Of a stretch of DNA of 56,198 bases, positions 3 to 55,706 are shown piece by piece. The notes beneath the pieces are model-generated. The model did not search any database and was not told the origin of the DNA. It was given only the letters and a program-made list of their open reading frames with translations. The DNA comes from an uncultured archaeon (GTDB taxonomy: Archaea > Iainarchaeota > Iainarchaeia > Iainarchaeales > GCA-2688035): assembly GCA_964569815.1 (NCBI GenBank), contig CAZMUN010000003.1:1-56198 (forward strand). The letters are read 5' to 3'. Numbering within the stretch: position 1 is the stretch's first letter; each line of letters begins with the position of its first letter. The position numbers and the translations under genes are program-made.

Positions 3-704
3 GGGCCTTTTTCTTCAACCCTTACAGCCTCTTTCCAGAATGTTGCAGACGGCACAAACATTGATTTTGACTGCGGCAACGGCCAGACAGGCGTTGGCAC
101 AGTTGTAAGCAATTTGGCTTCCTTTGCCTGCAATTATGGGCCAGTTGGCTCTTTGACTACTTACACTGCCACTGCTGATGACGGCGCTTCCATTGTTTGC
201 CCCCAAGAAACCGTTGCAAACAACTCTGGCGGGCCAGGCCCTGGCCCGGGCACAGGCTTTTTGAAAATAGTTCAATTAACTGCAGAGCCAGCTTTTTTTG
301 AAAGCTCTGCCCAAAAGCAGTTTTCAAACGTGAAGGTAGCCTTGAAAAATACTGGCACTGCTGCCATCAGCCCTGCCGAGGTAAAGCTTTTTGCAAAGGT
401 TGCTGAAACAAACCAGCCAATCGGTTTAGGGCTTCTTGGAAGCAACCAGGCTCCAATTAATGCAGGCGCCGCCCGTGAGTTTACTTTTTCCAATGTTGAC
501 ATTGTTGCAGCAGGCAATGATTTGGCTTCCGGGAGCTACAAGCTTGTAGCAGAAGCCTATGATTCCGGCACAAAAACAGACTCAAAAAGCGTTTACTTCA
601 CTGTCGGCAGCCAAATCCCTGTTCCTGAAACCCCGCTTTTCCTTGCTGCCCTAATAGCGCTTTCAGTTGTTTTAATAGCCCTCTTTTCCCGCAAGAAAAG
701 CTGA
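3..704 (+). CDS. Secreted CARDB-like surface protein, 5' end cut by the window edge, with a PEF-CTERM-like C-terminal sorting signal
   Basis: The frame stays open from nt 3 to the TGA at 702-704; the track start at 114 is only a TTG. A Pro/Gly linker (GGPGPGPGTG) is followed by a CARDB-like segment (VKVALKNTGTAAISPAEVKLF). The C-terminus PVPETP + LFLAALIALSVVLIALF + SRKKS reads as motif, TM helix and basic tail. Confidence 0.6.
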   Translation, partial: GPFSSTLTASFQNVADGTNIDFDCGNGQTGVGTVVSNLASFACNYGPVGSLTTYTATADDGASIVCPQETVANNSGGPGPGPGTGFLKIVQLTAEPAFFESSAQKQFSNVKVALKNTGTAAISPAEVKLFAKVAETNQPIGLGLLGSNQAPINAGAAREFTFSNVDIVAAGNDLASGSYKLVAEAYDSGTKTDSKSVYFTVGSQIPVPETPLFLAALIALSVVLIALFSRKKS

Positions 705-746: not shown

Positions 747-1271
747 ATGGACTCAACAGAATTCCTGGCATTTCTTGCCATTTTCCTGGTTCTTGCCTCT
801 TTAGGGCTTTGGATACTGTTCTTTCCACCTGAACCTGTTCAAGAGCCCCCTTTACAACCTGAGCCCCCGGAACAGCCTCCGCAGCAGCCCCCTGCCCAGA
901 CCCGGAAACCAATTGATACGCCTTACCAGCCGGAACCAGAGCCTGTTCAAACATGCCCTTCCACTGCCCAGGAAATAGAGGAATGCGAAGCACTGTTTGA
1001 AGAAAGAATGGATAACATTGAATACCTTTTTGAGCTGAACAACCCAATAAGGCCTTTTTCATCTCCCGAATACCAGAAATCCTTATCTGCAGGCAATGCA
1101 AGGCAGGCATACTCTTCATTCATTAAAGAATACAAGTCCTGCAGCCAGAGTGTTTCTTCATCCTATGCAGCCCTTATTCAGGAGCTGAGGGCCATTGACT
1201 CGGAACTGGGCTTCGTGAACTGGAACAACACTGACTTGGAAAAAATCGTCTGCGTTGAGGTGAATGCATGA
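747..1271 (+). CDS. Membrane-anchored proline-rich protein (hypothetical)
   Basis: ATG at 747 lies 23 nt after the TATA-like TATTTATTTA (715-724). N-terminal TM helix (FLAFLAIFLVLASLGLWILFF), then a PPEPVQEPPLQPEPPEQPPQQPP linker and a Cys-containing C-terminal domain. The stop overlaps the next start (ATGA at 1268-1271). Confidence 0.55.
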   Translation: MDSTEFLAFLAIFLVLASLGLWILFFPPEPVQEPPLQPEPPEQPPQQPPAQTRKPIDTPYQPEPEPVQTCPSTAQEIEECEALFEERMDNIEYLFELNNPIRPFSSPEYQKSLSAGNARQAYSSFIKEYKSCSQSVSSSYAALIQELRAIDSELGFVNWNNTDLEKIVCVEVNA

Positions 1272-3463
1272 AAAGCCCCCTTGTTTTGCTTCTGCTAATG
1301 GCTTTTTTGGTTTCGGCAAGCGCTGGCCCAACAGGTGCCGGAAACGAAACATGTGAAGACGGGGAAATAGCCTGGATAAAGGTTGGCCCTGTGACAGACT
1401 CTGACAGCGATGGCGTGCCAGACTGGGCTGAACAGCCAAACGGCAGCACATACAACGATTCTGCTTTTGTGGCAGAAACAGGCCAGCAGTTCGCAATTGT
1501 TACAAAGGTTTCAAACAACGGCTGCCACAATCCAGGAGACTGCCCTGCTGGCTGCCCGCAAGACGTTCCAATAATAGGCTTTGTTTGGCGCCATGGCCTT
1601 GGCTCGCACTGCAATACCTTGCCCTGCCTTTACAAGTGGATTGGAATAGAAGACCATTCAGCAGACCAAGTAAAAGTTTTTTGGGAAAACCCAACAGAAT
1701 ACACTGACACAGGCCTTACAAGCCTTGAAGCCGACATGTTCCAGCCATTCGACCTTAGCTCTGGAGACAGCGCTTTAATGGTTGAATACTGGACAATGCC
1801 TGAAAGGGCCTGTGGCGCCATTGCTCTTCCAACAAACAACCTAGGCTGTGTTGACGACTTTGGATGGTCCGCTGACCGCGATTACGTGAACTGGGCTAGT
1901 GGAGGCAACCAAAAGATTGCATTGGATTACCCAACAAACTGGTTTTCTGTCAACAATACAACAGGACAGCATGTTTTTTATACCACTAACTTTGTGGTGG
2001 AAGACGAGATTGGCAATGAACTGCCTACAGGCGGAGACGGAGAATACGATTTGGTTAACAGCAAAACCTATACCCTTAACTATGAAATCACCAACAACGG
2101 GACGGCAAACCAGGAAACAGACTTCGTTGAAAACATTTACATCGATGTTGCTCCCGGCTTGTGTGAATCGCTTTGGAATAGAATAAGCCAGACTGAAACC
2201 CTGAACCAGGGCCAAACTAGGGCATTTGTGGATAGCTACAACCCGAATGCAGATGACCCTGGGAACGACTGCACTGCTTCAAGCAACGGAGTTTTTTCGT
2301 TTACCTCAACGGCTTCTGGACAAGGCCTTGTTTCTTCCCACTACATGCACTTTGACATACTTGGGCCCTCAATTGACATACAGAGCGTGACCCCGACAGG
2401 CTTTTACTATGAGGCAGCAACCGCCGAAGTCGATGTCCTGGTGCAGGTTGAAAACACTGGCTCTGACGAGTTTCCTGCAGGTTCAGTGCTTGAACTGGTC
2501 TTCACCTCCTTTGATCCAAGTTTTGCCCAAGAATACACCGAGACAAGGGTCTTGGCAACGCCTCTTGCTTCAGGCGAAACCCGTTCAGAAACATTCTCTT
2601 TTGCAATGTCCGAAAACTCTTTTGGGATACACAACGTGGCTTTGGAGATATACGACGGCGGCACCTTGATTGAAAACGGGCCCTCCTTTTTTATCCATCC
2701 TCACATTCTTACCCTTTCGCCTGACGAGGTCACAACAGACATTGGCACAACGGTTACAGCTTCTCTTAACATAAAAAACGACTACTCTGCGCCAAAGCAC
2801 GTTGACATAAGCTCTTCAAGGCCTGGCTGGATTTCATTCGACCGCATTGAAGAGACAATTCCTGCAAGAAGCAATACTTCCACCATGCCTGCCGGCGACC
2901 TAACAGTTTCCGTAACACCGCAATGCCCTGCTTCTGCCACGCAGCCCATTGACATAATTGCATCAGATGAGCTTGAAGACTCTGTCCAGCTGCGTGTAAA
3001 CGTGAACAATCCTGAGGCCTGCAACACCGGCTCTTTGAAAATCTCTTCCTTTGAGTTTCAGCCAAACCCTGTTTCAGGGCCAAGCGTTGTAAGCGCTGTT
3101 GTTGCAGTGGAAAACCAAAGTTCGGGTGGTTTGTTGAGCCATGTTGACTTGTCCCTAAAGGATTTGGTTGGCCAAAACATGTTTTCTGGAAGCTCTGGAG
3201 CAGACGTTTTGATTGCTGCAGGGGCAACCATGGTTTTTTCAATCCCTTTTTCGGTTGACTCTTCCTGGGAAGAGGGAAACTATGAGGGAAAGGCTTCAGC
3301 CCTGCGCCAGGGTGAAACAACCCCTGATTCAGAGGCCATAGAATACCTTTCTGTTGGAAGCCCTTCAAGGCAGCCTGTTCCGGAAATGCCTTTCTTGCTT
3401 GTTTTTGCGGTTGCCTTTGCCGTGCTTGCAGTTGCACTGGCTTCGGGAAAAAAGCTTGCGTAA
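1268..3463 (+). CDS. Large secreted surface protein (731 aa) with Sec signal peptide, CARDB-like beta-sandwich repeats and a PEF-CTERM-like tail
   Basis: Signal peptide MKSPLVLLLLMAFLVSASA. Repeated segments of the type VDVLVQVENTGSDEF and VSAVVAVENQSSGG. The C-terminus PVPEMP + FLLVFAVAFAVLAVALA + SGKKLA mirrors the tail of the first ORF. Confidence 0.7.
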   Translation: MKSPLVLLLLMAFLVSASAGPTGAGNETCEDGEIAWIKVGPVTDSDSDGVPDWAEQPNGSTYNDSAFVAETGQQFAIVTKVSNNGCHNPGDCPAGCPQDVPIIGFVWRHGLGSHCNTLPCLYKWIGIEDHSADQVKVFWENPTEYTDTGLTSLEADMFQPFDLSSGDSALMVEYWTMPERACGAIALPTNNLGCVDDFGWSADRDYVNWASGGNQKIALDYPTNWFSVNNTTGQHVFYTTNFVVEDEIGNELPTGGDGEYDLVNSKTYTLNYEITNNGTANQETDFVENIYIDVAPGLCESLWNRISQTETLNQGQTRAFVDSYNPNADDPGNDCTASSNGVFSFTSTASGQGLVSSHYMHFDILGPSIDIQSVTPTGFYYEAATAEVDVLVQVENTGSDEFPAGSVLELVFTSFDPSFAQEYTETRVLATPLASGETRSETFSFAMSENSFGIHNVALEIYDGGTLIENGPSFFIHPHILTLSPDEVTTDIGTTVTASLNIKNDYSAPKHVDISSSRPGWISFDRIEETIPARSNTSTMPAGDLTVSVTPQCPASATQPIDIIASDELEDSVQLRVNVNNPEACNTGSLKISSFEFQPNPVSGPSVVSAVVAVENQSSGGLLSHVDLSLKDLVGQNMFSGSSGADVLIAAGATMVFSIPFSVDSSWEEGNYEGKASALRQGETTPDSEAIEYLSVGSPSRQPVPEMPFLLVFAVAFAVLAVALASGKKLA

Positions 3464-27551: not shown

Positions 27552-27586
27552 TTAAAAACAAGAAAAAGCTATTATATGCTGTTATT

Positions 27587-27814: not shown

Positions 27815-27865
27815 TTTGTGGCAATCCCTATTCATTTTTATTGACTTCAACCAACTATCCTAGTT

Positions 27866-28846: not shown

Positions 28847-28854
28847 TAAAGAAC

Positions 28855-35534: not shown

Positions 35535-35536
35535 GC

Positions 35537-38500
35537 TTACACAAACTCTGCGAGCTTTTTTTGTTCCGGCTTTTCGTTGTGGAACACGCTGTCAATTTCC
35601 TGGCTTATTAGCTCTAACCTTTGCCTCAGGTAAGGGCTTAATTCGAATTCGGCTGCAAGCGTCTTTGCGATATCCAAGTACTTGCGCACGCCGCCCTCGT
35701 TTACTGTAAGAATGATTTTGCTTTTTTTGCATTTTGGACAGCGCCCGTCCAAAGGAGGCCTCCTGATTCTGGCATTGCAGTTTGTGCAGCGAAAGCTTTG
35801 CCTGCTGAAGGCCCGCGTGTTTCCAATGATGTCCGGCATTAAATGTGTTAGCATGACGCGTTCCAATGCGTCTTTTTCGTCGACTGCTACAATTTTTCCC
35901 TGGATTTTGGCTTGCGCTCTTAGCTTTTCCTCCATGGTTTTCAACTGCACGTATTTTGAAAAAGTTGGCCCTTCGTCAAACTGCCTTGTGTCATGTGTAA
36001 AGCCAAAGCCTGAGTACTGGCCTTCTTTTCCCAAAATGTTTTTCACTAGAGTCAGGCCCTCTACTTCTGGCTGTGTTACTTTTGAAGCATTTGCATAGAG
36101 CTGCAAAGGGTATTCCCAAACAGTTTCCATTTCATAGCATTCATCATCTATTTCTGTGGGCCTTAATGCAACCGTGAAAACAAGGGGCGCATCCATTCTT
36201 CCGCCGCGGGAAGCCGGCAGGTAACTGTGTGAAAAGTTCAAGAGGTTGTCCATTAAGAGCATGAGGCTGTCTTGGTCGCCGTCAATGTTTCTTCTTTTTG
36301 TCTGGTGAAAGTAGGGGTGTCCAAAGCAAGCGCGGGCCTTGGTATAGCCTATTATGCGGCCTACGACTGCTGCTGATGTGTGCGGCGCCAAACCCAAAAC
36401 AAGCTGTCCAATCAAGTCTTCTTTTTTCTTTGCATTGAAGTAGGGCCTTGTTTTGTAGAATCTTTCAAGAAGCTCGTCCAAAAACTGGGAAACCTTTACA
36501 AAAAAGTCGCCGGCCTTTTCGTCCACTACAATGTCTTGAACCATGATTTCAATCATTTGGCCAGGGTTTTCAATCGGCTTCCCTTTTACGTCCTTTTCAT
36601 ATCCAAGCTTTTTCACTTGGTCCACTGTCAAGCCTATTTCTTCCGGCCTGAAATGGCTTAATGGCGCGTTTATGGCCTCATACCTTATGGTTCCGTCCCT
36701 GAAAATATGCAGGTCGTATTTTGCCCTAAGCAGGCCTTTTTCCAGCGGCTCTGCAACCTTTCCTGCGTTTATCATTCCCTTTACGCCTTTCACAATTGTT
36801 GGAATCTTCATGCCCAGGTTTTGGGATGCGTCATGCATTAGTTCTCCCAGGTCCACGCTTCTTTTGCTGAATGTTTCTGTTTCTGTGCCGCATTTCTGGC
36901 AGTTTTTTTCCTTTCCCAAGGTTCCGCAGTTTGGGCAAATGTTCATCTTTTCGGTTCTCAGGTCGCACTTTTCGCAGAATGGCTGCTCTTTTATGGAATC
37001 GCATTTTTGGCATTTGTACAAGGCAATCTCAACTAGAACAGAGCCCTCTTTTCCCTGCTTGTTTGAAACCATTGCCTTGTTGATTGACCTTGTGGCTCCG
37101 CCTGCTTGTGCTATTGGGAAGAGCACGTGTGGGTTGCCTGCCATCTTCCTTGGCTTGCTTGCCTCCGGCCTGCCCATTCTTGCCCCAATCCAGGTTCCTG
37201 CAAGGTCTTTTACAGGGAAGCCTGCAACCATGCTTAATGCTGAAACAATGTCAACAGATTTTTCAAGCGCGGTTTCAAGCCTTTTGCTTCCTAGTGCAAG
37301 AACTTTTTCCAGCGCAAGGAATTCTTCTTCTTTTACGAGAATTTTTCCTTCCTTTACCTCGTGGCATAGCCCAATGCGTTCAATCAATTCCTTTTCAGGG
37401 CCTTTTTCAAGCTCTCTCTGTTGGGAAACTTTTTTCCCCTTTTCCAGAAAGGCTTTGAGTTCCAAAAGCTTTTTCTTGTCAAGGCCTTTGTAGTAAAACA
37501 AGGCATTTGGATGCAATGGCAGATGGTATTTGGAGCTAAGCTCCAAAGCCCTTTCTATGCCTACGCCTGCGTGGTTTTTCAAGTCCTGTGAGATTTCCTT
37601 TGCTTTTTCGCCAAGCTGGCTTTTTGCTTCCAGTGCCCACCATTCAGAGCAATAGCCTACTGGCACCAGCGGGTGAGCAGAATGCCTGAAGTCGCCAATG
37701 CTTACAAGCAGGTCTCCCAAAAAAAGTATTTTGTCAAGGCGGTTCTTTACCTTTACTGCTTCCCCAAGGCTTTTCACTTTCACAACCGAGCCATTGAGAA
37801 GCCTTACAATCGGCCCCTCAATGGAATCCACTGGAGCCATTCCCGCTGCCTTTCCCGGCCTTTCAACCTTCATTTGTGTGGCGTTTGCGATGAACCCGTT
37901 CAAGAGGTGCATTGTTGCGGGGTGAATCCCTTTTCCCATTATGCCCGTGTTTCTTGAACGCCCGTACCTTAGCCTGAAGCCGCCAAACCTTGAGGGGTAG
38001 GCAATGATTGGCCTGCCTGCTGCCGCACCCTTGAGGTATTTTTCGCTTGGCTTGATTTTTATTTCCCCTGAGTCGGCCTTGTCAACCTTTATTATGTCTT
38101 CAAGCCAGATCCAGTCCAGGTTTAATTTTTTTGCAAATTTGAGAATTTTTGCTGCTTTCAATGCAACGCCTTCGCTTAAAACAAGGCACATTCCTCCTCT
38201 GACACGGTTGCTTTTTATTCTGGGAAGGTTTCTGTTCAATGAGACTTCGCGTTCTTCTGTTGGCTCGCCGTTTATGCATACAGTGCAGCCTCTTACAATC
38301 TTTCTGACTTCATCATCGCTTGGCTTGTACTGCCTTGTCACAATCTCATCGTATATCTGGCATTCTTCAACATATCTTTCCACTTCATCGTCAGTCGGCT
38401 TGTACTTGTCCAATCCAAGGATTTTTCTCCCATAGTCGCCTAAAATTAGGGGCAGAACCTGGCTTGTTCCTCCTGCTGCACGAATTGGCCCTGCGTAGTA

Positions 38501-38941
38501 TATATCAATGTATTCTGTGCCATCCGGGTTTTTGCTTATTTTTATCTCGGGAACGCCGTCCAAGGGTGCAACAACAACCCCCTCGGTGTTCAAAACAAGC
38601 GATGTTTTTATGGCTTGTTCGACCCTTTTCCCAGGGTCCCCTATTTTGCACCATTTTTGTTCAATTATTTCCCTGAAAATTTGGAATATGGCTTCAAGCC
38701 TGTCGCCTTTTTTTTCTTCAAAGACCTGCCGGTATCTTGCCGCTATACCCACAGGCCCTATAATTGTTTCGGTTCTGTCTGCAAGGTCTGCCACTGGCTT
38801 TGACTCTATTTTTGGGCTTACGTCAAACCCTTTTGCTTTGGCTTTTTCTGCCAAATCAAGCTGTTTTTCGGTTTCTTCAACAAGCTTTTGGTAGTATGCT
38901 TTTACATGCGGCTTTGCGTCAACATGTATTTTGACCTTCAT
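35537..38941 (-). CDS. polC: DNA polymerase D (Pol II) large subunit DP2
   Basis: 1134 aa. Cys4 zinc modules CQKCDSIKEQPFCEKC, CPNCGTLGKEKNCQKCG and CTNCNARIRRPPLDGRCPKCK. Overlaps the DP1 gene by 4 nt. The length leaves no room for an intein. Confidence 0.95.
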   Translation of the reverse strand: MKVKIHVDAKPHVKAYYQKLVEETEKQLDLAEKAKAKGFDVSPKIESKPVADLADRTETIIGPVGIAARYRQVFEEKKGDRLEAIFQIFREIIEQKWCKIGDPGKRVEQAIKTSLVLNTEGVVVAPLDGVPEIKISKNPDGTEYIDIYYAGPIRAAGGTSQVLPLILGDYGRKILGLDKYKPTDDEVERYVEECQIYDEIVTRQYKPSDDEVRKIVRGCTVCINGEPTEEREVSLNRNLPRIKSNRVRGGMCLVLSEGVALKAAKILKFAKKLNLDWIWLEDIIKVDKADSGEIKIKPSEKYLKGAAAGRPIIAYPSRFGGFRLRYGRSRNTGIMGKGIHPATMHLLNGFIANATQMKVERPGKAAGMAPVDSIEGPIVRLLNGSVVKVKSLGEAVKVKNRLDKILFLGDLLVSIGDFRHSAHPLVPVGYCSEWWALEAKSQLGEKAKEISQDLKNHAGVGIERALELSSKYHLPLHPNALFYYKGLDKKKLLELKAFLEKGKKVSQQRELEKGPEKELIERIGLCHEVKEGKILVKEEEFLALEKVLALGSKRLETALEKSVDIVSALSMVAGFPVKDLAGTWIGARMGRPEASKPRKMAGNPHVLFPIAQAGGATRSINKAMVSNKQGKEGSVLVEIALYKCQKCDSIKEQPFCEKCDLRTEKMNICPNCGTLGKEKNCQKCGTETETFSKRSVDLGELMHDASQNLGMKIPTIVKGVKGMINAGKVAEPLEKGLLRAKYDLHIFRDGTIRYEAINAPLSHFRPEEIGLTVDQVKKLGYEKDVKGKPIENPGQMIEIMVQDIVVDEKAGDFFVKVSQFLDELLERFYKTRPYFNAKKKEDLIGQLVLGLAPHTSAAVVGRIIGYTKARACFGHPYFHQTKRRNIDGDQDSLMLLMDNLLNFSHSYLPASRGGRMDAPLVFTVALRPTEIDDECYEMETVWEYPLQLYANASKVTQPEVEGLTLVKNILGKEGQYSGFGFTHDTRQFDEGPTFSKYVQLKTMEEKLRAQAKIQGKIVAVDEKDALERVMLTHLMPDIIGNTRAFSRQSFRCTNCNARIRRPPLDGRCPKCKKSKIILTVNEGGVRKYLDIAKTLAAEFELSPYLRQRLELISQEIDSVFHNEKPEQKKLAEFV

Positions 38942-40455
38942 TTAAAGGCCTCCTGCTGCATGAACCTTTTTTCGCCTATTTTTCCTGTTGCTATTTCAAA
39001 GACCGGCACTATTCCTGGCGTTGGAACATGCCCTAGCCTAACTTGGTAGTCTGTTCTGCTTTGCCATGTTCCGGAATTTATTACTGTTGTCCCGCGGTAG
39101 TTTCCGTAAGCGTTGTGGTGCATGTCTCCAATGTAGACAATGTCTGGCTGGTCCTGTATAACCAAGTAGTCCTCTTTTTCCGGCACATAAGGCTGTTTCA
39201 GGCCATAGGTTGACATTATGTCTCTTTTTTTCAAAGCCTCTATCATGGCCTGTTCAGGGTGCCCTGAGTTGAGAAAGCTTACGCTTCCAATAAGGTCGTG
39301 CAATGCAGCGCCATGGTAAACCATTGTTTTCAGGCCTTCTATTTCAAACCAGCTTGGGCTTCCAACAAGGTGAACGTTTTTCATTTTGGAGAGCTCTGGC
39401 AAAAACTCTTTTGGGACCGCGGGCTGTGGGTCTGCCCAGCGGACTGCGTCGTGCTGGCCAGGGCATATGATTACTTCAACATATTCTGGGACCTGCATAA
39501 TCAAGTCAGAGAAGTGCTCGTACTGCTTGTAGATATCTTTTATTGCCAGTTCCTCGAACTGGTTTGGGTAAATGCCTACGCCGTCTACGTTGTCCCCGCT
39601 CATAACAAGGTATTTGACACAGCCTGCTTGTTCGCGTTCTTTTTCCGAGCCCGTTCGCCCGTTGAGCCAGCTCAGGAAGGAATGGCATTCTTTTTCAAGG
39701 AAGAGCTTGCTTCCAATATGGAAATCGCTTGTTGAAGCAATGAAGAACTCGGATTCAACAAGCGTTTTCTGCCTTATGGGCATGTCTGGCCAAAAAACCT
39801 CTTTTACTATGAGTAGGTCTTCGTTCCATTTGACCGCCTTTATTCCTATTACGCCGTCGACAAGAATTCTTTCAGAAACATTTACCAGGTTGATGTCGTC
39901 TTTCAAAATCAGTGCAATGCATTGCCCGTTCAAGTCTTCGAACTGCAGCCCAACATGGCCTTTTTTTGTAATCCATTTCCTGAAAACCATGCCTATTGCG
40001 TCAACAGGCCTGCCTTTTGGCAAGTCCTTTAAGCTGCTTATCGGCCTTGGGGAGAACCCCTGCCTCTGCCTCAGAATCTTTGAAAGCAGCTCGAACTTTC
40101 TTCGAAAGTAAGCCAAAAAGTTTTCGGATTTGCCTTCGCTTTTGCTTTGCCCTGTAACGTCCCGGTCTCTAAGAAAATTTATTTTTGGGTCCAATTCTTT
40201 TGCCAAGGGCCTGAAGCCCTTGTTTTGCACAATGCATGTTTTTTTGTTAGCGTCTGGCATTTGCCCTGCTAAAAGCTTTTTTTCAACATTTTCCTTGTTT
40301 ATGAAAAAGACGCCGTCTTCAAGAATGCTGTCAATCAGTTCGGAAAAGTCTTCCTGCTTTATCAACAGCTCAAGCGCGGTTTCGTCAACGAACGCGTTTT
40401 TTTTGCTTGCATACTCAACGATTTCTTTTTCCTTTTCTTCAACCTGCATCTGCAC
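38938..40455 (-). CDS. polB: DNA polymerase D small subunit DP1 (3'-5' exonuclease)
   Basis: 505 aa. Mre11/calcineurin-like phosphoesterase motifs SGDNVDGVGIYP, CPGQHD and GDMHHN. Directly upstream of DP2. Confidence 0.93.
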   Translation of the reverse strand: MQMQVEEKEKEIVEYASKKNAFVDETALELLIKQEDFSELIDSILEDGVFFINKENVEKKLLAGQMPDANKKTCIVQNKGFRPLAKELDPKINFLRDRDVTGQSKSEGKSENFLAYFRRKFELLSKILRQRQGFSPRPISSLKDLPKGRPVDAIGMVFRKWITKKGHVGLQFEDLNGQCIALILKDDINLVNVSERILVDGVIGIKAVKWNEDLLIVKEVFWPDMPIRQKTLVESEFFIASTSDFHIGSKLFLEKECHSFLSWLNGRTGSEKEREQAGCVKYLVMSGDNVDGVGIYPNQFEELAIKDIYKQYEHFSDLIMQVPEYVEVIICPGQHDAVRWADPQPAVPKEFLPELSKMKNVHLVGSPSWFEIEGLKTMVYHGAALHDLIGSVSFLNSGHPEQAMIEALKKRDIMSTYGLKQPYVPEKEDYLVIQDQPDIVYIGDMHHNAYGNYRGTTVINSGTWQSRTDYQVRLGHVPTPGIVPVFEIATGKIGEKRFMQQEAFK

Positions 40456-41811: not shown

Positions 41812-41937
41812 ATCACACCACTGTTACCAAAATCACAGGCCTTTTACCAATATTTTTAATCATTTGGTTAGCCTATTGATATAGCTGTTTTTAAGCTTTT
41901 AAATAGTTATTTGGTTGGGAAAAAAGGGGTTTTTGAG

Positions 41938-43011
41938 TTGGATTTTACCGGATTTTATTCCAAAAAAAGCTACAAGCTCTACATGCTTGTTCCCGCACTG
42001 CTTTTCATAGCCTTCCTTTTCCTGATAACAATATGGCCAGGCATTCCGCGCGGCATCGACCTGCAAGGCGGAACACTGCTTGTTGCAAGGAGCGAAAAGC
42101 CAATTGATGCACTTGAACTGAAAAAACTCCTTAACCAGAACTTTGACCTTCTCGACCTAAAAGTAAACAGCATTTCTGGGCCAGCCGGAAACGGGGTAAA
42201 CATACAGTTTGCCGGAAACAATACACTGCTTGCAGCAGAAGCACAGCTTGCCCTTGCAAAACAAGCCCTTGAAACAAACCCTCAAGCAGCCAGGCAAAAC
42301 ATCGAGGAAGCAGTAAGCATTCTTGAGCCATTCCTTGAGTCCACCGCCCTTTCGCCAGACACAGAAGCCGCCTTAAACCAGGCCGAGCAACACTTCATTG
42401 AAGCAAACCAAGCCATCAACCAGGAAATGCAAAGCCTGATAACAAAGGAATTCAGCTTGGGGGAAAACGTTGCCTTCCAGAAAAAGGAAGTAAGCCCTAC
42501 CTTGGGAAGAAGCTTCTGGCAAACAGCGTTCAACGTTGCAATAATGGCTGGAATACTCATAATTGCGGTAATTTTCCTCTTCTTCCGAAAAATAATTCCA
42601 AGCCTTGCAGTGATTGCAGCAGCAGTCTTTGACGTTTCAGGCGCATTGGCCCTTATGACTGTTTTCGGAATACCTCTTTCTTTAAGTAGTATCCCTGCCT
42701 TGCTTATGCTTGTCGGATACAGTGTTGACACAGACATAATGCTTACTACCAGGATTTTGCACCGGAAAGAAAAAACGCCTGCCTCAAGGGCAGCAGATGC
42801 AATGGCAACAGGCCTCACGATGACCGGAACCACTATTGCAGCCCTTCTCTCAATGCTTGTAATAGCCTACCTTACCCAAATATTCGTGATATTTGAGATA
42901 GCGGCAGTAATTCTTTTTGGATTGCTTGCAGACATCGTTTCAACCTGGCTTATGAACGCAGAAATCCTGCTTTGGTACGCGCAAAGAAAAGAGCAAAAAG
43001 GTGTTTTGTGA
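41938..43011 (+). CDS. secF: Protein-export membrane protein SecF
   Basis: GIDLQGGT motif and a 6-TM core with the SecF-type LVGYSVDTDIMLTTRIL. The start is uncertain: the track TTG 41911 lies only 4 nt after the TATA-like TTTTAAATAG (41897-41906), so I prefer TTG 41938. ATG 41983 is also possible. Confidence 0.75.
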   Translation: MDFTGFYSKKSYKLYMLVPALLFIAFLFLITIWPGIPRGIDLQGGTLLVARSEKPIDALELKKLLNQNFDLLDLKVNSISGPAGNGVNIQFAGNNTLLAAEAQLALAKQALETNPQAARQNIEEAVSILEPFLESTALSPDTEAALNQAEQHFIEANQAINQEMQSLITKEFSLGENVAFQKKEVSPTLGRSFWQTAFNVAIMAGILIIAVIFLFFRKIIPSLAVIAAAVFDVSGALALMTVFGIPLSLSSIPALLMLVGYSVDTDIMLTTRILHRKEKTPASRAADAMATGLTMTGTTIAALLSMLVIAYLTQIFVIFEIAAVILFGLLADIVSTWLMNAEILLWYAQRKEQKGVL

Positions 43012-44616
43012 ATGGACTTGTACAAGAACTGGAAAATCCAGCTCTGGGTTGCGTTTCTCCTGCTTTCAATACTGATACTCGGCTTCAGGGGAATGCAGCT
43101 TGGAATAGACTTCAAAGGAGGAACCCTTTTCCAAATAGAGCTTGACGAGCCAATACAAAGCACGGATGAAAGGTCCCGCATTGTACAAACAATCCAGCAA
43201 AGGCTTGACTGGACCGGCCTAAGAGACATCAGCGTAAACTTCTTCGGAGAAGACTTTGTAATCGCACAAGTAGCAGAATCAGATCCCGATACAATTGAAA
43301 GAATAGAATCCCTGCTAAAAAAACAGGGTGTCTTCGAAGCCACGATAGACGGCAACGTAATCTTTTCAGGGGAAGACATTATCGAGATGCCAAAAGACCC
43401 AGCCCGCGGCTATTCCCTTTACCAGGAAAGCGGAGGCATTAGGTGGGTGCTGCCCTTTGTTCTAAAAAGCAAGGCCGCCCAGCGCTTCACAGAAATGACC
43501 TTCCACAAATGCGAACTCATATCCTACAGCCCGGAAACAGGCCGTGAATACGAGTGCCAGCAGACATACTTTTTCATAGACAGGCCAAAAGACGCCGTGC
43601 TTGTAATGCCAAAAGACCTATACTTTTCAGACGAACAAATCCTTCTTGAAGGGGTCTTTGGGCAGGGAATTCCGCAAGGAACCAAAATAGATGAAACCAT
43701 TCTCAATTCCCAAATGCCCTACATGCTTACAGAGGAAAGCTTTTCCCCTGAACAGGAATCACTCTTAAACCAGCTGGCTTCAGAGAAAAAAACAGCAGTA
43801 ATACCTGAAACCATGAACCAAAGCCTTAAAGGCCATCTTGTAGAAAAAGGCTTCGAATTGAGAGAGGTTCCTGTGAAAGAGGGAATGCCCTTTGTTTTTG
43901 ATGCCGTAGGCATGAGAAGCATTATTGGCCTAAGTGAAGGCGTGGCCCAAATGGATGTAGCAAGGCTTGAAGACGCAAAAACAATGGACAAGCTCCAGAT
44001 TTTTGGCTTTGCCCAGACAAGGGACGCAGCAATACAAAGGCGGGCGGATTTGGAAATTTTGCTTCAAAGCGGAAGCCTCAGCGTTTCAGTGAAAAGCATC
44101 AGCAAGGAAACAATCTCCCCCCTGTTGGGGAAAAACTTCCTTCAAAACGTGGCCTTCATTGGGCTGATAGCACTGCTCGTGGTCGCATTGGTCGTATTCC
44201 TAAGATACCGCATGCTAAGGCTAACAATTCCAATAGTCTGCATTGGAGTAAGTGAAGTCCTTATAACAACAGCCATTGCTTCTTTGATAAGCAAGTTTGA
44301 TTTGGGTGCGGTGGCAGGAATACTTGCAGCAGTGGGAACAGGTGTAGACCACCAGATAATAATAACAGACGAGTTAAGGCGCGGCATAAAAGACCAGGCC
44401 GGAAGCCTTGTGTCAAGGGCAAAAAGGGCCTTTTTCATAATAATGGCAGCAGCCTCAACAACCATTGCAGCAATGCTGCCAATAATAATCATAGGGTTTG
44501 GCTTGGGCCGCCTTGTAGGCTTTGCCATTACAACAACAATCGGTGTCCTCGTAGGCGTTCTAATAACAAGGCCTGCTTTTGGCGAAGTAGCCAAAAAAAT
44601 AATTGAAAAAAAATAG
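43012..44616 (+). CDS. secD: Protein-export membrane protein SecD
   Basis: ATG abuts the secF stop. GIDFKGGT motif, a large extracytoplasmic domain, and a 6-TM core with AVGTGVDHQIIITDE. Confidence 0.8.
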   Translation: MDLYKNWKIQLWVAFLLLSILILGFRGMQLGIDFKGGTLFQIELDEPIQSTDERSRIVQTIQQRLDWTGLRDISVNFFGEDFVIAQVAESDPDTIERIESLLKKQGVFEATIDGNVIFSGEDIIEMPKDPARGYSLYQESGGIRWVLPFVLKSKAAQRFTEMTFHKCELISYSPETGREYECQQTYFFIDRPKDAVLVMPKDLYFSDEQILLEGVFGQGIPQGTKIDETILNSQMPYMLTEESFSPEQESLLNQLASEKKTAVIPETMNQSLKGHLVEKGFELREVPVKEGMPFVFDAVGMRSIIGLSEGVAQMDVARLEDAKTMDKLQIFGFAQTRDAAIQRRADLEILLQSGSLSVSVKSISKETISPLLGKNFLQNVAFIGLIALLVVALVVFLRYRMLRLTIPIVCIGVSEVLITTAIASLISKFDLGAVAGILAAVGTGVDHQIIITDELRRGIKDQAGSLVSRAKRAFFIIMAAASTTIAAMLPIIIIGFGLGRLVGFAITTTIGVLVGVLITRPAFGEVAKKIIEKK

Positions 44617-45114
44617 CTACAAAAGGCTGCTGAAATCCTTTACAGAAGCAACCTTTTTGGTCAAATAATACCACAAGCCCAAAATCAAGCCAGCTGACAA
44701 AAACCATGTTAAGACATGGATTGCTTCACTAAATTGAATGCCAAAAGACAAGGCAGCCCAGATGACAAAATAAACCCGAACCAAGTTAAGTGGAAACAAA
44801 ACCATTGCCCCAAAAGCAAAAAGAACCGCCTTTCTCTTTAAATCAGGCTTTCGCAAAGCAAAAACTATTGCAGCCAAAACGCTTATTCCCATAAGGCCTG
44901 TGCAGTTTGCCACTATCTCAAAGCCATGGCCCTGAAACAACACCCTGTTTCCAACACTTTCCAATCCAAGGCCCTGCGCTTCAATAAAAGCAATCCATTC
45001 CTTTAGGCTCTCAATCGGCGCATTAAGAATAAGCAACTGCAAAACTGCGTAAATGGCAAAAAACTTGAGGAGAAAAAAAAGCGCTTTTCTTGAAAACTCG
45101 TTTTTCTCTTCCAT
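44617..45114 (-). CDS. Archaeosortase/exosortase-family transpeptidase, minimal 165-aa form
   Basis: Polytopic membrane protein with the family's ordered Cys-Arg-His residues: EIVANCTGLMG (C71), PLNLVRVYF (R113) and EAIHVLTW. The size resembles the small ArtE-type members. Confidence 0.7.
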   Translation of the reverse strand: MEEKNEFSRKALFFLLKFFAIYAVLQLLILNAPIESLKEWIAFIEAQGLGLESVGNRVLFQGHGFEIVANCTGLMGISVLAAIVFALRKPDLKRKAVLFAFGAMVLFPLNLVRVYFVIWAALSFGIQFSEAIHVLTWFLSAGLILGLWYYLTKKVASVKDFSSLL

Positions 45115-45115
45115 C

Positions 45116-45637
45116 TCACCACGGGTCTTTCTTCATTTTAACAAAAAAGGCAATCCAGTTCCCCAAAACATGGGCCAGCATAGTGAAAGCAAAAAGAAAA
45201 AGCATTTCCAAGGTTGAAGGGAACATCAAAAGACCCCCCAAAACAAAGCCGCCTAAAACAAAGTCAAGCTGGTCAAGCAAAAAAACGCTTTTCCCCCTCT
45301 CAATAGAAAGCCGCCTCTTAAGAAAGCTTCCTGCAAAATCTCCTAAAACCGCTCCAACGGCCAGCAAGGCGCCATAAGCCAAGTAACCTACAGACATTAT
45401 TGCATTAACCTGCGGAAAAACCAGCTGCAGAAGAAAAGCCCCCAAGACCGCGAAAAAAACCCCTGAAAAGGTTCCCCTAAAAGTTTTTCCCCGCCCCAAA
45501 ACAGGCTTTTCGTCAAAAAAATTTTTTCCAAAATCAATCGGGTGAATTCCGCCAAAAACAAGGGCAAGGCTATTGCACAAATAAAGCGGAATTGCTATCA
45601 GGCTCACTCTTATTACAAAAAAGACAAGTCCGGTCAT
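45116..45637 (-). CDS. carS: CDP-archaeol synthase
   Basis: 173 aa membrane protein. GRGKTFRGTFSG and GDFAGSFLKRRLSIERGKSVFLLDQLDFVLGG match the conserved CarS (DUF46) regions. TATA-like TTTAAATT lies about 30 nt upstream. Confidence 0.8.
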   Translation of the reverse strand: MTGLVFFVIRVSLIAIPLYLCNSLALVFGGIHPIDFGKNFFDEKPVLGRGKTFRGTFSGVFFAVLGAFLLQLVFPQVNAIMSVGYLAYGALLAVGAVLGDFAGSFLKRRLSIERGKSVFLLDQLDFVLGGFVLGGLLMFPSTLEMLFLFAFTMLAHVLGNWIAFFVKMKKDPW

Positions 45638-45696
45638 GAAACCACGATTTTTCTAATGATTTTTGCTTTAACCTAATTTAAATCTTTTCCTTTGCC

Positions 45697-46371
45697 TTAA
45701 AGAACAAAAAGCGCCCATGCCAAAACCGTTCCGCCAAAGCTTCCCAAAAAATTCACTTCGGTGTTGTTTAACATGCCCTGCCTTTCAAACAATGCTCCAA
45801 AAAAGCTGTCAACCACGGACCCAAAAAAACCGCTCAAAACCAAGACAAGGGCAAGAAAAAGGTTTCCAAAAAACGCGAAATGCAGTATGGCAATCAAGCC
45901 AGCTCCCAAAACAGATGCCGCCAAACCCAAAGCGGTTACCCCGCCGTCTGTTCCAGGCTCAACTGTTTTCAGGCTTGTTACAAGAACAGGCTTTTTTTTG
46001 GAAAGCAGTCCTATTTCGCTACTCAGCGTATCAGCCAAAGCGCTTGCAAATGCCGCAAAAAACCCTAAAGGAAAGCCGACTGCAAGGGCAAGTATCGCAG
46101 TGCCGCTGTTTCCCAAAATGTTTCCAGCAGTTCTTACCTCATGCTTTATTTTTCTCTTCCCTGAATAAATCGTTGCAATTTCTGCAGCTACAAAAAACAG
46201 GACAGTTACAAAAAAATAAACAAGATTCCATTCAGAAAAAAGAAAAATGGCTATTCCAACAATGTTTGCAATAAGAACGCCTTCAAAGTTTAGCATTTTC
46301 TTTCTGTAAGAAACCAGGCTGAAAGCAGCTAAAGTTAAAAGCAGAACTGCAACTTCAACCGGAAACGGCAT
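45697..46371 (-). CDS. DUF92/TMEM19-family integral membrane protein (VTE6 phytyl-phosphate-kinase-like)
   Basis: 224 aa polytopic protein. RTAGNILGNSGTA, ADTLSSEIG and EPGTDGGVTALG fit the DUF92 pattern. Confidence 0.7.
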   Translation of the reverse strand: MPFPVEVAVLLLTLAAFSLVSYRKKMLNFEGVLIANIVGIAIFLFSEWNLVYFFVTVLFFVAAEIATIYSGKRKIKHEVRTAGNILGNSGTAILALAVGFPLGFFAAFASALADTLSSEIGLLSKKKPVLVTSLKTVEPGTDGGVTALGLAASVLGAGLIAILHFAFFGNLFLALVLVLSGFFGSVVDSFFGALFERQGMLNNTEVNFLGSFGGTVLAWALFVL

Positions 46372-46372: not shown

Positions 46373-46990
46373 TCAGTTACCTTCCATCAGCCTGCTTTTT
46401 ATCACTTCAACCCTTTTCAGTGGAGCGATTTTTGAGACCTGCTTGAAAAGCTTTGATGCAAGTGCCCCAAAAATAAGCTCTTGGGAGAACTGCTGAAAGC
46501 CTTTCTTTCCTGCGGCTCTTTCAATAAATTCGGACACGAATTTTCTTATGCTGCGTTCCTGCTTCCTGGTAAGCTTTCTTACTGAAAGAGCAACGGTCTT
46601 TACCCTCATTCTGGCTTTGTCCTCGGTTTCCACTGTCTGGACAACCTCAACCTTGCTTGTTCTTCTCCTCAAAAGCCTGTTCAAAAAAGAAAAGCTGACT
46701 TCATGCCCCGCGGTTTTGCAGTTTGCGTTGTTTCCTTCAACTTTTTCCACCTGGAAAACGACCTTTACGTAACGTTTTTGCCTTTGGCCTGTAAGCTGGC
46801 CCAAATCAGAAACAATTGTCCTCGACATCAGGTTCTTGGGTTTTTCTGCAACGGTTTCACCTAAAACCTTTCTGTCAAATTCAGCCGGAGCAACAAGAGT
46901 ATACCACTGTTTTCTCTTCCACTTGTCAATTGCCTTGCCTTTTTTGACAACCTTTTTTCCCGGCTTTGCAGCCTGTTTTTTTTCAGCCAT
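46373..46990 (-). CDS. rps3ae: 30S ribosomal protein eS1 (S3Ae)
   Basis: KWKRKQWYTLVAPAEFDRKVLGETVA is a typical eS1 N-terminus. ATG 46990 (MAEKKQ) is preferred over the track start 46999. Confidence 0.9.
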   Translation of the reverse strand: MAEKKQAAKPGKKVVKKGKAIDKWKRKQWYTLVAPAEFDRKVLGETVAEKPKNLMSRTIVSDLGQLTGQRQKRYVKVVFQVEKVEGNNANCKTAGHEVSFSFLNRLLRRRTSKVEVVQTVETEDKARMRVKTVALSVRKLTRKQERSIRKFVSEFIERAAGKKGFQQFSQELIFGALASKLFKQVSKIAPLKRVEVIKSRLMEGN

Positions 46991-46995
46991 AAAAA

Positions 46996-47112
46996 TCACT
47001 TCAACTTAACAACGATTGAATCAACCTTTTCAAGCAATTCCCCCAAAGCCAAATCGCCTTTCTCTTCTTCGATTCTTTCTCCGTTCCTCTCCAAAAAAAA
47101 CTCATATTTCAT
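46996..47112 (-). CDS. Possible unannotated 38-codon ORF between uS15 and eS1
   Basis: An ATG (47112) to TGA (46996-46998) frame encodes MKYEFFLERNGERIEEEKGDLALGELLEKVDSIVVKLK. It fills the gap almost exactly: 6 nt after the uS15 stop and 5 nt before the eS1 start. It is below the ORF-track cutoff and matches no family I recognise. Confidence 0.3.
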   Translation of the reverse strand: MKYEFFLERNGERIEEEKGDLALGELLEKVDSIVVKLK

Positions 47113-47118: not shown

Positions 47119-47757
47119 TCACTTTGCAAGCAAGGCAGCGGTCTCAGGGCTGTATCTCCAGGTCAAAGGAAGCTTTCCCTGCCTTTTGTAGTATTTCTCC
47201 AGGGCCCGAATTTTTGAAACCGTGAGCATCAAACCGCGCTTTGCACTCATATCCTTCTTGTTTTTTTCCAAGTGCTCCCGCAAGGCAACGCTTTTTCTAA
47301 TAAGGTTCATCAAGTCCTCTGGAACCTGGCCAACAAGCTTGTTTTCAGCTAAAATCCGGCCAACCTTTTTTCCAATCACCTTTGCGGTTTTTGGAATGCC
47401 GTACTGGTCGCGCAAAATCATTCCTATTTCAGAAGCAGTATGGCCCTCGTTTGCCAAATGAACTATTGCCTCTTCGACCTCTTTTGGCTTAAGCTCAACA
47501 AAATCCTTTACCGAAGCCTTTCCCCTCTTTGGCTTCTGCTTCCCTTTCTTGGCAGGCCTTTTTTCCTCTTTGGCCTGTTTCTTTTCCCTGTTTTTTTGGC
47601 TTTCCTCGGCTTCCAGGGCCTCTTTTTTGGCTTTTGGCTTTTCCTCTTTGGCCTGTTTTTCTTCAGCTTTTTCTTTTTCCTCTTTTTTGGCCTTAGGGCT
47701 AGCCTTTTCTTCTTTCTTTTCAGCCTTTTCTTCTTTCTTTTCAGCCTTTTTTGCCAT
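47119..47757 (-). CDS. rps15: 30S ribosomal protein uS15 (S15P/S13e) with a Lys/Glu-rich N-terminal extension
   Basis: The C-terminal ~146 aa are typical (HLANEGHTASEIGMILRDQYGIPK, PEDLMNLIRKSVALREHLEKNKKDMSAKRGL, LPLTWRY). The first ~66 aa are a KE-rich low-complexity stretch. GGTGA lies 7 nt upstream of the ATG. Confidence 0.9.
   Translation of the reverse strand: MAKKAEKKEEKAEKKEEKASPKAKKEEKEKAEEKQAKEEKPKAKKEALEAEESQKNREKKQAKEEKRPAKKGKQKPKRGKASVKDFVELKPKEVEEAIVHLANEGHTASEIGMILRDQYGIPKTAKVIGKKVGRILAENKLVGQVPEDLMNLIRKSVALREHLEKNKKDMSAKRGLMLTVSKIRALEKYYKRQGKLPLTWRYSPETAALLAK
47701..47742. repeat. Perfect 21-nt tandem repeat (2 copies plus a partial third) inside the uS15 5' extension
   Basis: agccttttcttctttcttttc occurs at 47701-47721 and again at 47722-47742. 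It encodes AEKKEEK twice on the minus strand. Confidence 0.9.
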
Positions 47758-50876: not shown

Positions 50877-51254
50877 ATCTATGCACCAAACTTGTTTCCT
50901 TTAACTAAAAAAATCGAAGAAAAAGAATAAAACTCATTGCTTTTCCTTGAGAACGATAAAAGACACCTTACAAACCCATTTATGAAACTTTTTTTAAAGG
51001 CCAGCCTTTTATTCAAAGAAACCTATTTTTTGGTTGCGTAAAAAAAAAAGCTTTTTTTTCTGACCCCCGTAAAAACAGGTGGTTTTGAGAAGCTTTTTTC
51101 CTTCAAGGCCTCACATCCCTTCTAGGTTTTGCCAGACATTTCCAAACCTGCGGAACCCGCAATAAAAGCGGTTTTTGGCGAAGAAACTTTGCAGAAAAAA
51201 GGTTTCTTTGCCTTGAGCAAAGAAATAAAAGCAAGCAATGCTTACTATATTTTA

Positions 51255-51935
51255 ATGAAGAGGAAGCTTTTCAAGGCAGGCTGCCATGCGCTTGCAATCC
51301 TTGCAGTTTTGACTGCATTCCTTGCATACCCTGTTCTTCCATCCTCTGTTCCAATTCATTGGAATGCCCAAGGAATGGTTGACGGCTGCGGGCCAAAATG
51401 GGTTGGGGCCTTCCTGTTTCCAATTGTAATGGTTCTCTTCCTGTTTTTTCTTTTTCTTATTCCAAAAATAGCGGTCTTCAAAAAAAACCTGAAAGACTTT
51501 GAGGAAAGCTATTGGGCCTTGGGCTATGTGCTAGAGCTTTTCTTCCTTATCTTCTATGCCTTGACGCTTTTGCCCAACTTTGGCTATTCGTTCAACATGT
51601 CCCAGCTTTTGATGCTGCCTTTGGGAATGCTTTTCATTTCTTTGGGTATTCTAATGCCTTCCTTTAAGAGAAACTTTTTTGTTGGCATTAGAACGCCTTG
51701 GACTCTTGCAAACGACAGGGTTTGGGAGAAAACTCATCGTTTGGGCGGAAAGCTTTTTGTTTTGGCAGGCCTTGCCTCTCTGGTAAGCGTTCCTTTTTCT
51801 TCTGTTGCCATTTTCATATCCGTTTTTTCGGTTCTAGTTGCGGTTGCCATCACAATAGTTTACTCTTTTTTTGAGTTCAGGGCACAGAAAAAAGACGGCC
51901 TAAAGCCAAAAGGAAAGCGGAAAAAGAAGCGCTAG
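51255..51935 (+). CDS. DUF1648 + SdpI-family membrane protein
   Basis: ATG 51255 (MKRKLFKAG...). [18 protein letters not shown] (DUF1648-type) and [25 protein letters not shown] (SdpI/YhfL-type). The track TTG 51129 would add an unsupported soluble leader. Confidence 0.7.
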
Positions 51936-53074
51936 CTGAACTTTTTTTTGACGCTTTCAAAAAAGCTTTTTCTTTTCTTTTTGAGCTTTTCCTCTTTTGC
52001 AAGCTCTTCAAAAACCTGCTTCTGCTTTTTGCCAAGCTTTTCAGGGGTTTGCACAATGACTTTTACATACTGGTCGCCAAAGCTTTCTTCCCTTAAATCC
52101 TTTATGCCTTTTCCCTTTAGCCTGAACAGGGTTCCTGTCTGGGTTCCTGGAGGGACCTTTAACGAGGCTTTGCCCTTCAAAGTCGGGACATCTATTTTGG
52201 TTCCAAGGGCTGCCTCTGCAAAGCTTATTGGGACCTCGCAAAAAATGTCTGAGCCGTCCCTTTTGAAGACCTCGTGAGGCTCAACAAACACGATAACCAC
52301 AAAAAGGTCGCCTGCTGAACCGCCGTTTATTCCTGCATTTCCCTGGCCTTCCAGCCTTAAGTGGTCTCCGGCATCTATTCCGGCGGGAATCTTTACCTTT
52401 ACCTTTCTTACTGCCCTTACCCTGCCCTTTCCATTGCATTCATTGCAGGCTTTTTTCCATGTTTTTCCCAAACCAGCGCATTTTGGGCAGGGCCTTTGCG
52501 TTGAAAACATTCCAAAAGGGGTTTTCTTTGTTTGCCTTAAAACTCCTGAGCCATGGCACTGGCTGCATGTCTCCTCTTCAAAGCCGCCTTTTCCTCTGCA
52601 TTTTTTGCATGCTTCCACCCGAGAAATGGAAATGCTTTTTTCTGTTCCAAAAGCGGTTTCTTCAAAGCTGAGGCTTATGTCTGCACGCAGGTTAGCGCCT
52701 TTTGCAGGCCCTGATGTTGAGCGGCCTCCAAAGGCTTCCCTGAAAATGTCGTTTATTCCGGAGCCAAATCCAAAGCCCCCGAAAATGTCCCCAAAATCGA
52801 AGTCGAAATCGCGGGCATTGAAGCCGCGGAATCCTTGAAAGCCCTGAAAGCCTTGGGCTGCATGCCCAAACTGGTCATAGTTCTGCTTTTTCTGCGGGTC
52901 TGACAAAACCTGGTAGGCTTCAAGTATTTCCTTAAACCGGTCTTCTGCGCCTTCTTCTTTGTTCAGGTCAGGGTGGTATTTTTTGGCAAGGCTTTTGTAG
53001 GCCTTTTTTGCCTCTTCAATGGAAGCGCCTTTCTTTAGGCCCAAAATTTCATAGTAATCGCGCTTCTCTGCCAT
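51932..53074 (-). CDS. dnaJ: Chaperone DnaJ
   Basis: J domain (DYYEILG ... KYHPDLN), a Gly/Phe-rich linker, and four CxxCxGxG motifs ([32 protein letters not shown]). Confidence 0.95.
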
Positions 53075-53147
53075 GGCAACCAGTTAAATAATTTGAAAAA
53101 AGAAATTAAAAATGCAGGCTTTTTTTTTGGCCTGCTTTTTATGCAGC

Positions 53148-55049: not shown

Positions 55050-55131
55050 TAAAATCACTCCTTTTTTTTGTTTCCTGTGTAAGGCTGTTCCGGTGCCAGG
55101 TCTTCCGGCAATTCCAAGGGGGTTGGGCTTC

Positions 55132-55620: not shown

Positions 55621-55706
55621 AAAAACACCTTTGATTAAAACGTTTAAACTTTTAAATAAATCTTTAAACAAAACCTTTATATTCTTTTCCCAATCTTTTT
55701 CTTTTT
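55621..55706. promoter_or_regulatory. Bidirectional promoter region between grpE and the wHTH regulator gene
   Basis: 86-bp AT-rich spacer containing the palindrome GTTTAAAC (55642-55649), a second TTTAAAC (55663-55669), TTTAAATAAA (55651-55660) and TTTATATT (55676-55683). Confidence 0.4.

Follow-up and report, generated by a model that had tools for sequence, protein, structure and literature searches.

A short archaeosortase encoded directly behind carS in Iainarchaeota and distant DPANN relatives, and its possible role in lipid anchoring of surface proteins

Contig CAZMUN010000003.1 (assembly GCA_964569815.1) is a 56,198-nucleotide stretch of DNA from an uncultured archaeon of the Iainarchaeota, a phylum in the kingdom Nanobdellati, i.e. 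DPANN, and its full length is referred to here as the window. The question it raises is why a small gene of the exosortase/archaeosortase family lies immediately behind carS, the gene for CDP-archaeol (CDP-2,3-bis-O-geranylgeranyl-sn-glycerol) synthase, and whether this arrangement says anything about what the sortase does. The reading towards which we lean is that the gene product is a short four-helix archaeosortase, whose gene is second in an operon with carS and which would lipid-anchor surface proteins through an acceptor derived from CDP-archaeol.

The sortase open reading frame (44617-45114, minus strand) encodes 165 amino acids and belongs to a subfamily without a name. Upstream on the same strand are carS (45116-45637, 173 amino acids) and, beyond a 59-nucleotide spacer (45638-45696, minus strand), the gene for a DUF92 (PF01940) integral membrane protein (45697-46371, minus strand, 224 amino acids), with S3Ae (46373-46999, minus strand) preceding DUF92 at a gap of 1 nt. 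The secF-secD genes (41911..44616, plus strand) converge with the sortase gene, a context kept within Iainarchaeota only, and the secD stop codon TAG (44614-44616) abuts the sortase stop codon (CTA on the plus strand, 44617-44619) with a spacer of 0 nt. The gene order and coordinates given in the initial annotation, together with the spacer and its TATA-like element, the 1-nt gap between carS and sortase and the secD abutment, were all recovered in the open reading frame list and in the raw sequence. A functional meaning of the secD abutment was considered and rejected, as it is not conserved outside close relatives and insertions (HicA, a 156-residue open reading frame; up to 2.3 kb) occur at the sortase|secD junction in several Iainarchaeota loci. 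Scans of the window for tRNA and Rfam families gave no RNA features.

The assignment of the protein to the archaeosortase family, made initially from the DNA letters, is borne out by profile searches. The exosortase/archaeosortase signature TIGR04178 scores 45.8 bits (cut-off 23) over residues 65-151 and PF09721 (Exosortase_EpsH) scores 28 bits (cut-off 25.7), with the alignment covering positions 106-248 of 254, the C-terminal 60% of the model. Classification by the ArtA-ArtF subfamily models, which had been put forward as a check, succeeds at the level of this superfamily signature and fails for every named subfamily. The best full-length subfamily alignment is with ArtD (TIGR04175; 41 bits, cut-off 125), followed in score by ArtA (TIGR04125; 40 bits, cut-off 75), ArtC (33.8 bits, cut-off 100), pacearchaeosortase (NF033505; 26.7 bits, cut-off 80), heimdallarchaeosortase (22.2 bits, cut-off 130), ArtF (21.2 bits, cut-off 150), ArtE (21 bits, cut-off 95) and ArtB (20.9 bits, cut-off 150). 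Ten relatives sampled across the range of profile matches also fall below every named subfamily cut-off. A hidden Markov model search of 1.84 billion representative proteins, with clusters at 50% identity, returned 564 clusters of sortase homologs at E ≤ 0.001, 146 at E ≤ 1e-10 and 51 at E ≤ 1e-30, and a word-indexed search returned 39 clusters of 164-165-residue homologs with 38-69% identity. On these profile matches the sortase clade is a large short-archaeosortase subfamily without a name. Its members are nearly all 150-210 residues long, and the description of the window protein as half the usual size is true only against ArtA, ArtC and XrtA; the models for ArtB, ArtD, ArtE, ArtF, pacearchaeosortase and XrtX span 150-168 positions, so that 165 residues is ordinary for the short class.

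The Cys71/Arg113/His triad pointed out in the initial annotation is present as C71, R113 and H133. These residues are invariant among 33 aligned family members, as are G73, N110, W137 and a C-terminal W-x-x-x-T-K motif, and every full-length protein among the top 150 representatives retains the Cys, N-x-x-R and H-x-x-x-W. By its sequence the protein is a genuine member of the exosortase/archaeosortase superfamily that keeps Cys/Arg/His, and a putative peptidase. The AlphaFold2 model calculated with the 33-sequence alignment (pLDDT 91, pTM 0.81) has four long helices and a small β-hairpin formed by residues 52-66. Two of the loops are basic (87-96, with five basic residues and one acidic, and 152-165, with three and one) and two are acidic (32-70, with two basic residues and five acidic, and 123-131), a charge distribution which, with the positive-inside rule, places C71, R113 and H133 on the outer face, at the predicted extracytoplasmic ends of the transmembrane (TM) helices TM2, TM3 and TM4. 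This predicted position is where a motif directly preceding the C-terminal TM helix of a substrate would be expected to lie. A PDB sequence search and a fold search with the AlphaFold2 model gave no solved relative of the sortase.

The identity of the neighbouring CarS is well defined, with 156.7 bits against the equivalog model NF003114 (cut-off 148), 132 bits against PF01864 and an alignment over the whole length with 5GUF, the solved structure of Aeropyrum pernix CarS (residues 9-173, E = 4e-23). The DUF92 protein scores 159.8 bits against PF01940 (cut-off 27.5) and 139.3 bits against TIGR00297, below the cut-off of 205.85, and the search of solved structures returned no homolog of it. DUF92 is presumably the family of the plant phytyl-phosphate kinase VTE6, and the sequence suggests that the protein is possibly a prenyl-phosphate kinase-like enzyme. 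VTE6 has been connected to COG1836 (PMC9782597). DUF92 had been counted as a member of the cluster, and it does lie upstream of carS in the window; however, in 10 relatives it is parted from carS by an opposite-strand Peptidase_S49/NfeD gene of ~1 kb (NfeD1b), and in Micrarchaeota-like loci it is elsewhere or absent and does not stand beside carS. DUF92 is the looser partner of the carS-sortase pair.

The spacer between DUF92 and carS reads GGCAAAGGAAAAGATTTAAATTAGG... and contains the element GGAAAAGA-TTTAAAT (45676-45690, minus strand), which resembles a B-recognition element (BRE) and TATA box and is located ~40 nt upstream of the carS ATG, the TTTAAAT being preceded by a purine-rich BRE-like stretch. 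The motif AAAGG-TTTAAAT is kept 40-50 nt upstream of carS in the closer relatives (loci L001, L002, L004, L006, L008, L010 and L027-L031), and this conservation supports a promoter serving both carS and sortase; the element in the window is the probable promoter of the bicistron. At the stop-start junction (45112..45118, minus strand) the carS TGA is followed by 1 nt (45115) and the sortase ATG, with GGTGA directly upstream, and a promoter directly ahead of the sortase gene would not fit. The co-transcription supposed in the initial annotation is almost certain, with the conserved promoter-like element of the spacer as its start, and the form of the junction makes translational coupling probable.

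The adjacency of the two genes is not peculiar to this contig, since the neighbourhood survey, centred on the sortase gene in other genomes, finds carS beside it at 26 of 27 loci. Within Iainarchaeota (loci L001-L021, of which L001 and L005 are one contig, with sortase identity down to 38-40%) carS is directly upstream of the sortase gene on the same strand in all 20 distinct loci, and the order RIO-S15-S3Ae-DUF92-carS-sortase / secD-secF / NOG1 is syntenic throughout. More distant relatives were found with a profile of family members that are 17-38% identical to one another. Seven of its matches were examined (21-31% identical to the profile reference), two of which are named Candidatus Micrarchaeota archaeon by NCBI, and carS is directly upstream in six (L023-L026, L108 and L110). 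The flanks of these distant pairs are unrelated, with genes for HisRS, DNA ligase, VapBC and a helicase, and secDF is absent. The gap between carS and sortase is at most 10 nt in 31 of 38 loci and the two genes often overlap (-1, -4 or -7 nt), these sizes resting on start codons that were assigned heuristically. An insertion is never present at the carS|sortase junction, unlike the DUF92|carS and sortase|secD junctions, where insertions of ~1 kb occur.

When the survey is centred on carS, the sortase gene is immediately downstream in 11 of 80 metagenome loci, a clade-specific distribution that argues against an artefact of the general carS context. A neighbour-joining CarS tree puts the sortase-linked carS genes in two clades; all members of the Iainarchaeota clade are linked, and in the Micrarchaeota-like clade the linked loci are mixed with four that have no sortase gene. 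One further carS locus, L034, retains S15-S3Ae-DUF92-carS with the sortase gene absent.

These distributions bear on an alternative explanation, that the archaeosortase is real and its position next to carS is neutral, the gene order having been inherited in very compact genomes and the enzyme acting independently of CarS. Several observations that would be expected on this explanation weigh against the lipid-anchoring reading, as do the small number of candidate substrates and the lack of head-group genes described below. Tight junctions are normal in the window, where 8 of 25 same-strand junctions have a gap of at most 1 nt, including that between S3Ae and DUF92. In a compact genome where such junctions are frequent, the 1-nt carS-sortase gap is weak evidence alone and was discarded as an argument for linkage in its own right. 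The 20 Iainarchaeota loci are not independent because the whole nine-gene block is syntenic across them. Most carS loci are without the sortase gene, with ~58 informative loci having none inside 3 kb, and, as read from the tree, the adjacency was lost at the four sortase-less loci of the Micrarchaeota-like CarS clade; conversely the seventh distant relative, L109, encodes a sortase with carS not nearby. A neutral order is nevertheless unlikely in our judgment, as distant lineages, Micrarchaeota among them, have kept the pair despite entirely different flanks, both neighbouring junctions took insertions and the carS|sortase junction did not, and the stop-start overlap or short gap recurs in the large majority of the loci. 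In addition, an independent precedent ties archaeosortase genes to CDP-archaeol-consuming enzymes (PMC7157517).

A further gene recurs around the pair. A divergent gene for an NfeD1b/Peptidase_S49 protein, a membrane protease of the SppA/ClpP class, sits right upstream of carS in each of the two clades with sortase linkage, at L003:4534-5430, L024:2158-3090, L025:3290-4177, L026:2889-3797, L108:2148-3113 and L110:2051-3007 (all minus strand) and likewise in L007, L009, L010, L011, L017, L018 and L031-L033. The same position is occupied in the carS loci L036, L053 and L084, where the sortase gene is absent, and the window has no such gene at that site. That the protease could clear cleaved TM peptides is speculation. 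The contigs L004, L006 and L021 were deposited in Thaumarchaeota, Chloroflexi and Falkowbacteria bins and are probably mis-binned, because they have the typical Iainarchaeota synteny.

The two candidate substrates mentioned in the initial annotation were found in the window, with PVPETP and PVPEMP tails. The first is the C-terminal part of a secreted protein whose 5' end lies off the window (3..704, plus strand), with the signal at nt 618-701 composed of PVPETP, a TM helix and RKKS (C terminus ...SQIPVPETPLFLAALIALSVVLIALFSRKKS). The second is a secreted CARDB-domain protein of 731 amino acids with an N-terminal signal peptide (1268..3463, plus strand), with the signal at nt 3374-3460 composed of PVPEMP, a TM helix and GKKLA (C terminus ...RQPVPEMPFLLVFAVAFAVLAVALASGKKLA). 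The pattern P.PE.P occurs in only 2 of the 37 window proteins, each time directly before the C-terminal TM helix and basic tail of a secreted protein, and on this evidence both are probable sortase substrates. A homolog search with the CARDB-domain protein returned a single ortholog, P0210, in which the tail is kept as QPVPEMPFLLAFAVAFAVLAIALYQHKKPGQ. Related tails are present at two other sortase loci, NIPDTN-TM-RKKRE in L019 and ...SQVPDSN-LFVTALIALAAFLLLA-RARGPQRKRG in L109, where the genes for the sortase homolog (3-548, minus strand) and the secreted protein (594-1139, plus strand) form a divergent pair; the tripartite signal in L109 may be internal, because more sequence follows before the contig end. 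The working consensus of the four tails is [VI]-P-[DE]-x-[PN] followed by a TM helix and then a basic tail. The NCBIfam CTERM models produced a single match to the window tails, PEF-CTERM on the tail of the first protein (12.1 bits, cut-off 23), and no PGF-type tail was found among the window proteins. The candidates thus number four in ~430 kb of sortase-bearing sequence.

Giant surface proteins are also encoded in the window, in a cluster (9107-25549, plus strand; 1491, 583, 787 and 2227 amino acids), with CarboxypepD_reg, Big_1 and SpaA-like domains. The N-terminal sequence GYFF[FL]EDRYY is common to two of them and a PVPExP tail is present in none, and a Peptidase_A24/Arc_PepC prepilin-peptidase-like gene (24497-25549) comes after the cluster.

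The few recognizable substrates also bear on the proposal that the protein does not sort proteins at all, and is instead an accessory subunit of CarS or a lipid-directed Cys/Arg/His enzyme that might, for example, remodel host-scavenged lipids in DPANN archaea. Such a role would suit the near-obligate pairing seen in the sortase-centred survey, and in a cultivated Micrarchaeon the lipid pathways are incomplete and the lipids identical to those of its host (PMC8975820). We nonetheless rate it highly unlikely. The complete exosortase/archaeosortase signature region is retained, tripartite VP(D/E) C-terminal signals do occur in these lineages, including one whose gene is next to that of the L109 sortase, and CarS-sortase fusions are absent among the top 150 relatives, none of which exceeds 237 residues, and from the Pfam domains of the matches.

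A connection between CarS and lipid anchoring is suggested by the ArtA system. The initial annotation had appealed to the dependence of Haloferax ArtA on archaetidyl-lipid biosynthesis genes, and the precedent is real: Haloferax ArtA requires HvPssA and HvPssD to cleave and lipidate its substrates, and in Methanosarcina artA adjoins pssA and pssD (PMC7157517). In the published model the ethanolamine amine attacks the ArtA thioester (PMC7157517; see also PMC9385802) and CDP-archaeol is the precursor of archaetidylserine and archaetidylethanolamine (PMC7157517). The earlier suggestion that CarS makes the activated lipid donor itself does not agree with this chemistry. CDP-archaeol is unlikely to be the direct donor because it has no obvious nucleophile to resolve a thioacyl-enzyme, and by analogy with ArtA the acceptor lipid is more likely made from it.

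Under the favored reading of a lipid-anchoring archaeosortase, Sec would export surface proteins that bear a signal peptide at the N terminus and a tripartite signal at the C terminus, and the C-terminal TM helix would hold them in the membrane at first. The enzyme would then cleave at the VP(D/E)xx motif by means of the extracytoplasmic Cys71/Arg113/His133, forming a thioacyl intermediate, and the amine of a CDP-archaeol-derived lipid (e.g. archaetidylserine or archaetidylethanolamine) would resolve this intermediate to leave a covalent lipid anchor. CarS would supply CDP-archaeol as the starting material of the acceptor, and co-transcription with stop-start coupling would keep CarS and the sortase co-expressed and probably co-located. 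By analogy with ArtA we infer that a lipid is attached and which one accepts the protein, as well as any interaction, physical or functional, of CarS with the sortase.

Genes for the steps that follow CarS are not close by, with no pssA, pssD, CDP-alcohol phosphatidyltransferase or other head-group gene within the window. This would agree with a sortase that only cleaves, freeing or maturing surface proteins or using an acceptor other than lipid (a glycan or the S-layer, for example), with co-expression of carS reflecting shared regulation of envelope biogenesis. Lipid attachment has been demonstrated solely for Haloferax ArtA, and the acceptors of other archaeosortases and of exosortases are not established (PMC6098224). 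A cleavage-only enzyme is distinctly unlikely in view of the clustering, which across phyla is with a lipid-activation enzyme and not with glycosylation or S-layer genes, and of the finding that cleavage in Haloferax itself requires the lipid pathway (PMC7157517).

A bolder form of the lipid-anchoring reading, which we put forward tentatively and regard as doubtful, is that carS-sortase is a dedicated ancient DPANN lipidation module in which, in lineages unable to synthesize lipids themselves, CarS would be retained largely to re-activate scavenged archaetidic acid so that the mini-archaeosortase can covalently anchor adhesins and further surface proteins, the two proteins possibly forming a complex. 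The retention of carS beside the sortase gene is notable in this respect because the cultivated Micrarchaeon has incomplete lipid pathways. If true, surface display would be tied directly to the scavenging of host lipids, and the pair would be a minimal two-gene system for identifying the archaeosortase lipid acceptor.

The CarS family was uncharacterized at the time of Haft et al. 2012. The enzyme family, its catalytic residues, the short size class and a general link between archaeosortases and lipids are already known. As far as the literature shows, what is new here is a large short-archaeosortase subfamily in DPANN, the near-obligate association of its genes with carS in two phyla or more and a candidate VP(D/E)xx-CTERM signal. 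The literature search, to which Haft et al. 2012 was out of reach, returned no paper tying archaeosortases to carS, Iainarchaeota or Micrarchaeota. To our knowledge the genetic evidence on archaeosortase lipid attachment comes from Haloferax only, where the genes are scattered over the genome. Conserved in two DPANN phyla or more, the carS-sortase pair points to the CDP-archaeol branch independently and at the level of the genome, and carS, the sortase gene and a short VP(D/E)xx tail together make a minimal system for reconstitution. The pairing may also account for the retention of carS in lipid-auxotrophic DPANN archaea.

The remainder of the window has several other features. Between the S15 and S3Ae genes is a 38-residue open reading frame (MKYEFFLERNGERIEEEKGDLALGELLEKVDSIVVKLK, 46996-47112, minus strand), and L001, L002 and L003 have a predicted gene of 38-56 residues at this place. 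Ribosomal protein S15 (47119-47757, minus strand, 212 amino acids in total) has a Lys/Glu-rich N-terminal extension of ~65 residues; the protein is 226-245 residues long in relatives and just 150 in L003. Four radical SAM genes, one SPASM and one HemN-like, are located in the regions 8092-9114 (minus strand), 26148-31035 and 31096-32843, which also contain a Peptidase_U32 gene followed by an overlapping 262-residue open reading frame without a family match. The DnaJ-DnaK-GrpE gene set (51932-55671, minus strand) adjoins a gene for an SdpI/DUF1648 membrane protein (51129-51935). SepF, Cdc6/Orc1 and both DNA polymerase D subunits are clustered at 33696-40455, and a quick repeat search of the intergenic regions flanking cdc6/polD showed no convincing origin-type repeats.

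Compared with known systems, the sortase shares with ArtA of Haloferax volcanii the superfamily signature region with its Cys and Arg, and the candidate substrates share with those of ArtA the arrangement of motif, TM helix and basic C-terminal tail. ArtA is, however, ~270-300 residues long with extra N-terminal helices, compared with 165 residues here, and its signal is PGF whereas that of the candidates is VP(D/E)xx. The artA-pssA-pssD cluster of Methanosarcina and the carS-sortase pair both link a sortase gene to the CDP-archaeol branch of polar-lipid synthesis. Here the partner gene is carS, which acts one step before pssA, and unlike the ArtA system the pair is probably translationally coupled and is conserved across phyla. 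The short class (ArtB, ArtD, ArtE, ArtF, pacearchaeosortase and XrtX) has in common with the window protein its size, the four-helix core and the C-x-G ... N-x-x-R ... H motifs, but the definitions of that class include neither a linkage to carS nor a C-terminal W-Y-Y-L-T-K-[KR] motif, which are both features of the present family. In the PEP-CTERM/exosortase (EpsH, XrtA) and PEF-CTERM/ArtC systems the signal resembles the VPE(T/M)P, hydrophobic helix and basic tail found here. The PEP-CTERM consensus is VPEP..., and the candidate tails differ from it by one extra residue between the E and the P; XrtA and ArtC are also twice the length of the sortase, which is not linked to exopolysaccharide genes. 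The rhombosortase/GlyGly-CTERM system of Vibrio is non-homologous, with a rhomboid serine protease fold and bacterial lipids. It places a glycerophosphoethanolamine-containing moiety on the new C terminus and has been cited as support for resolution by an amine lipid (PMC7157517).

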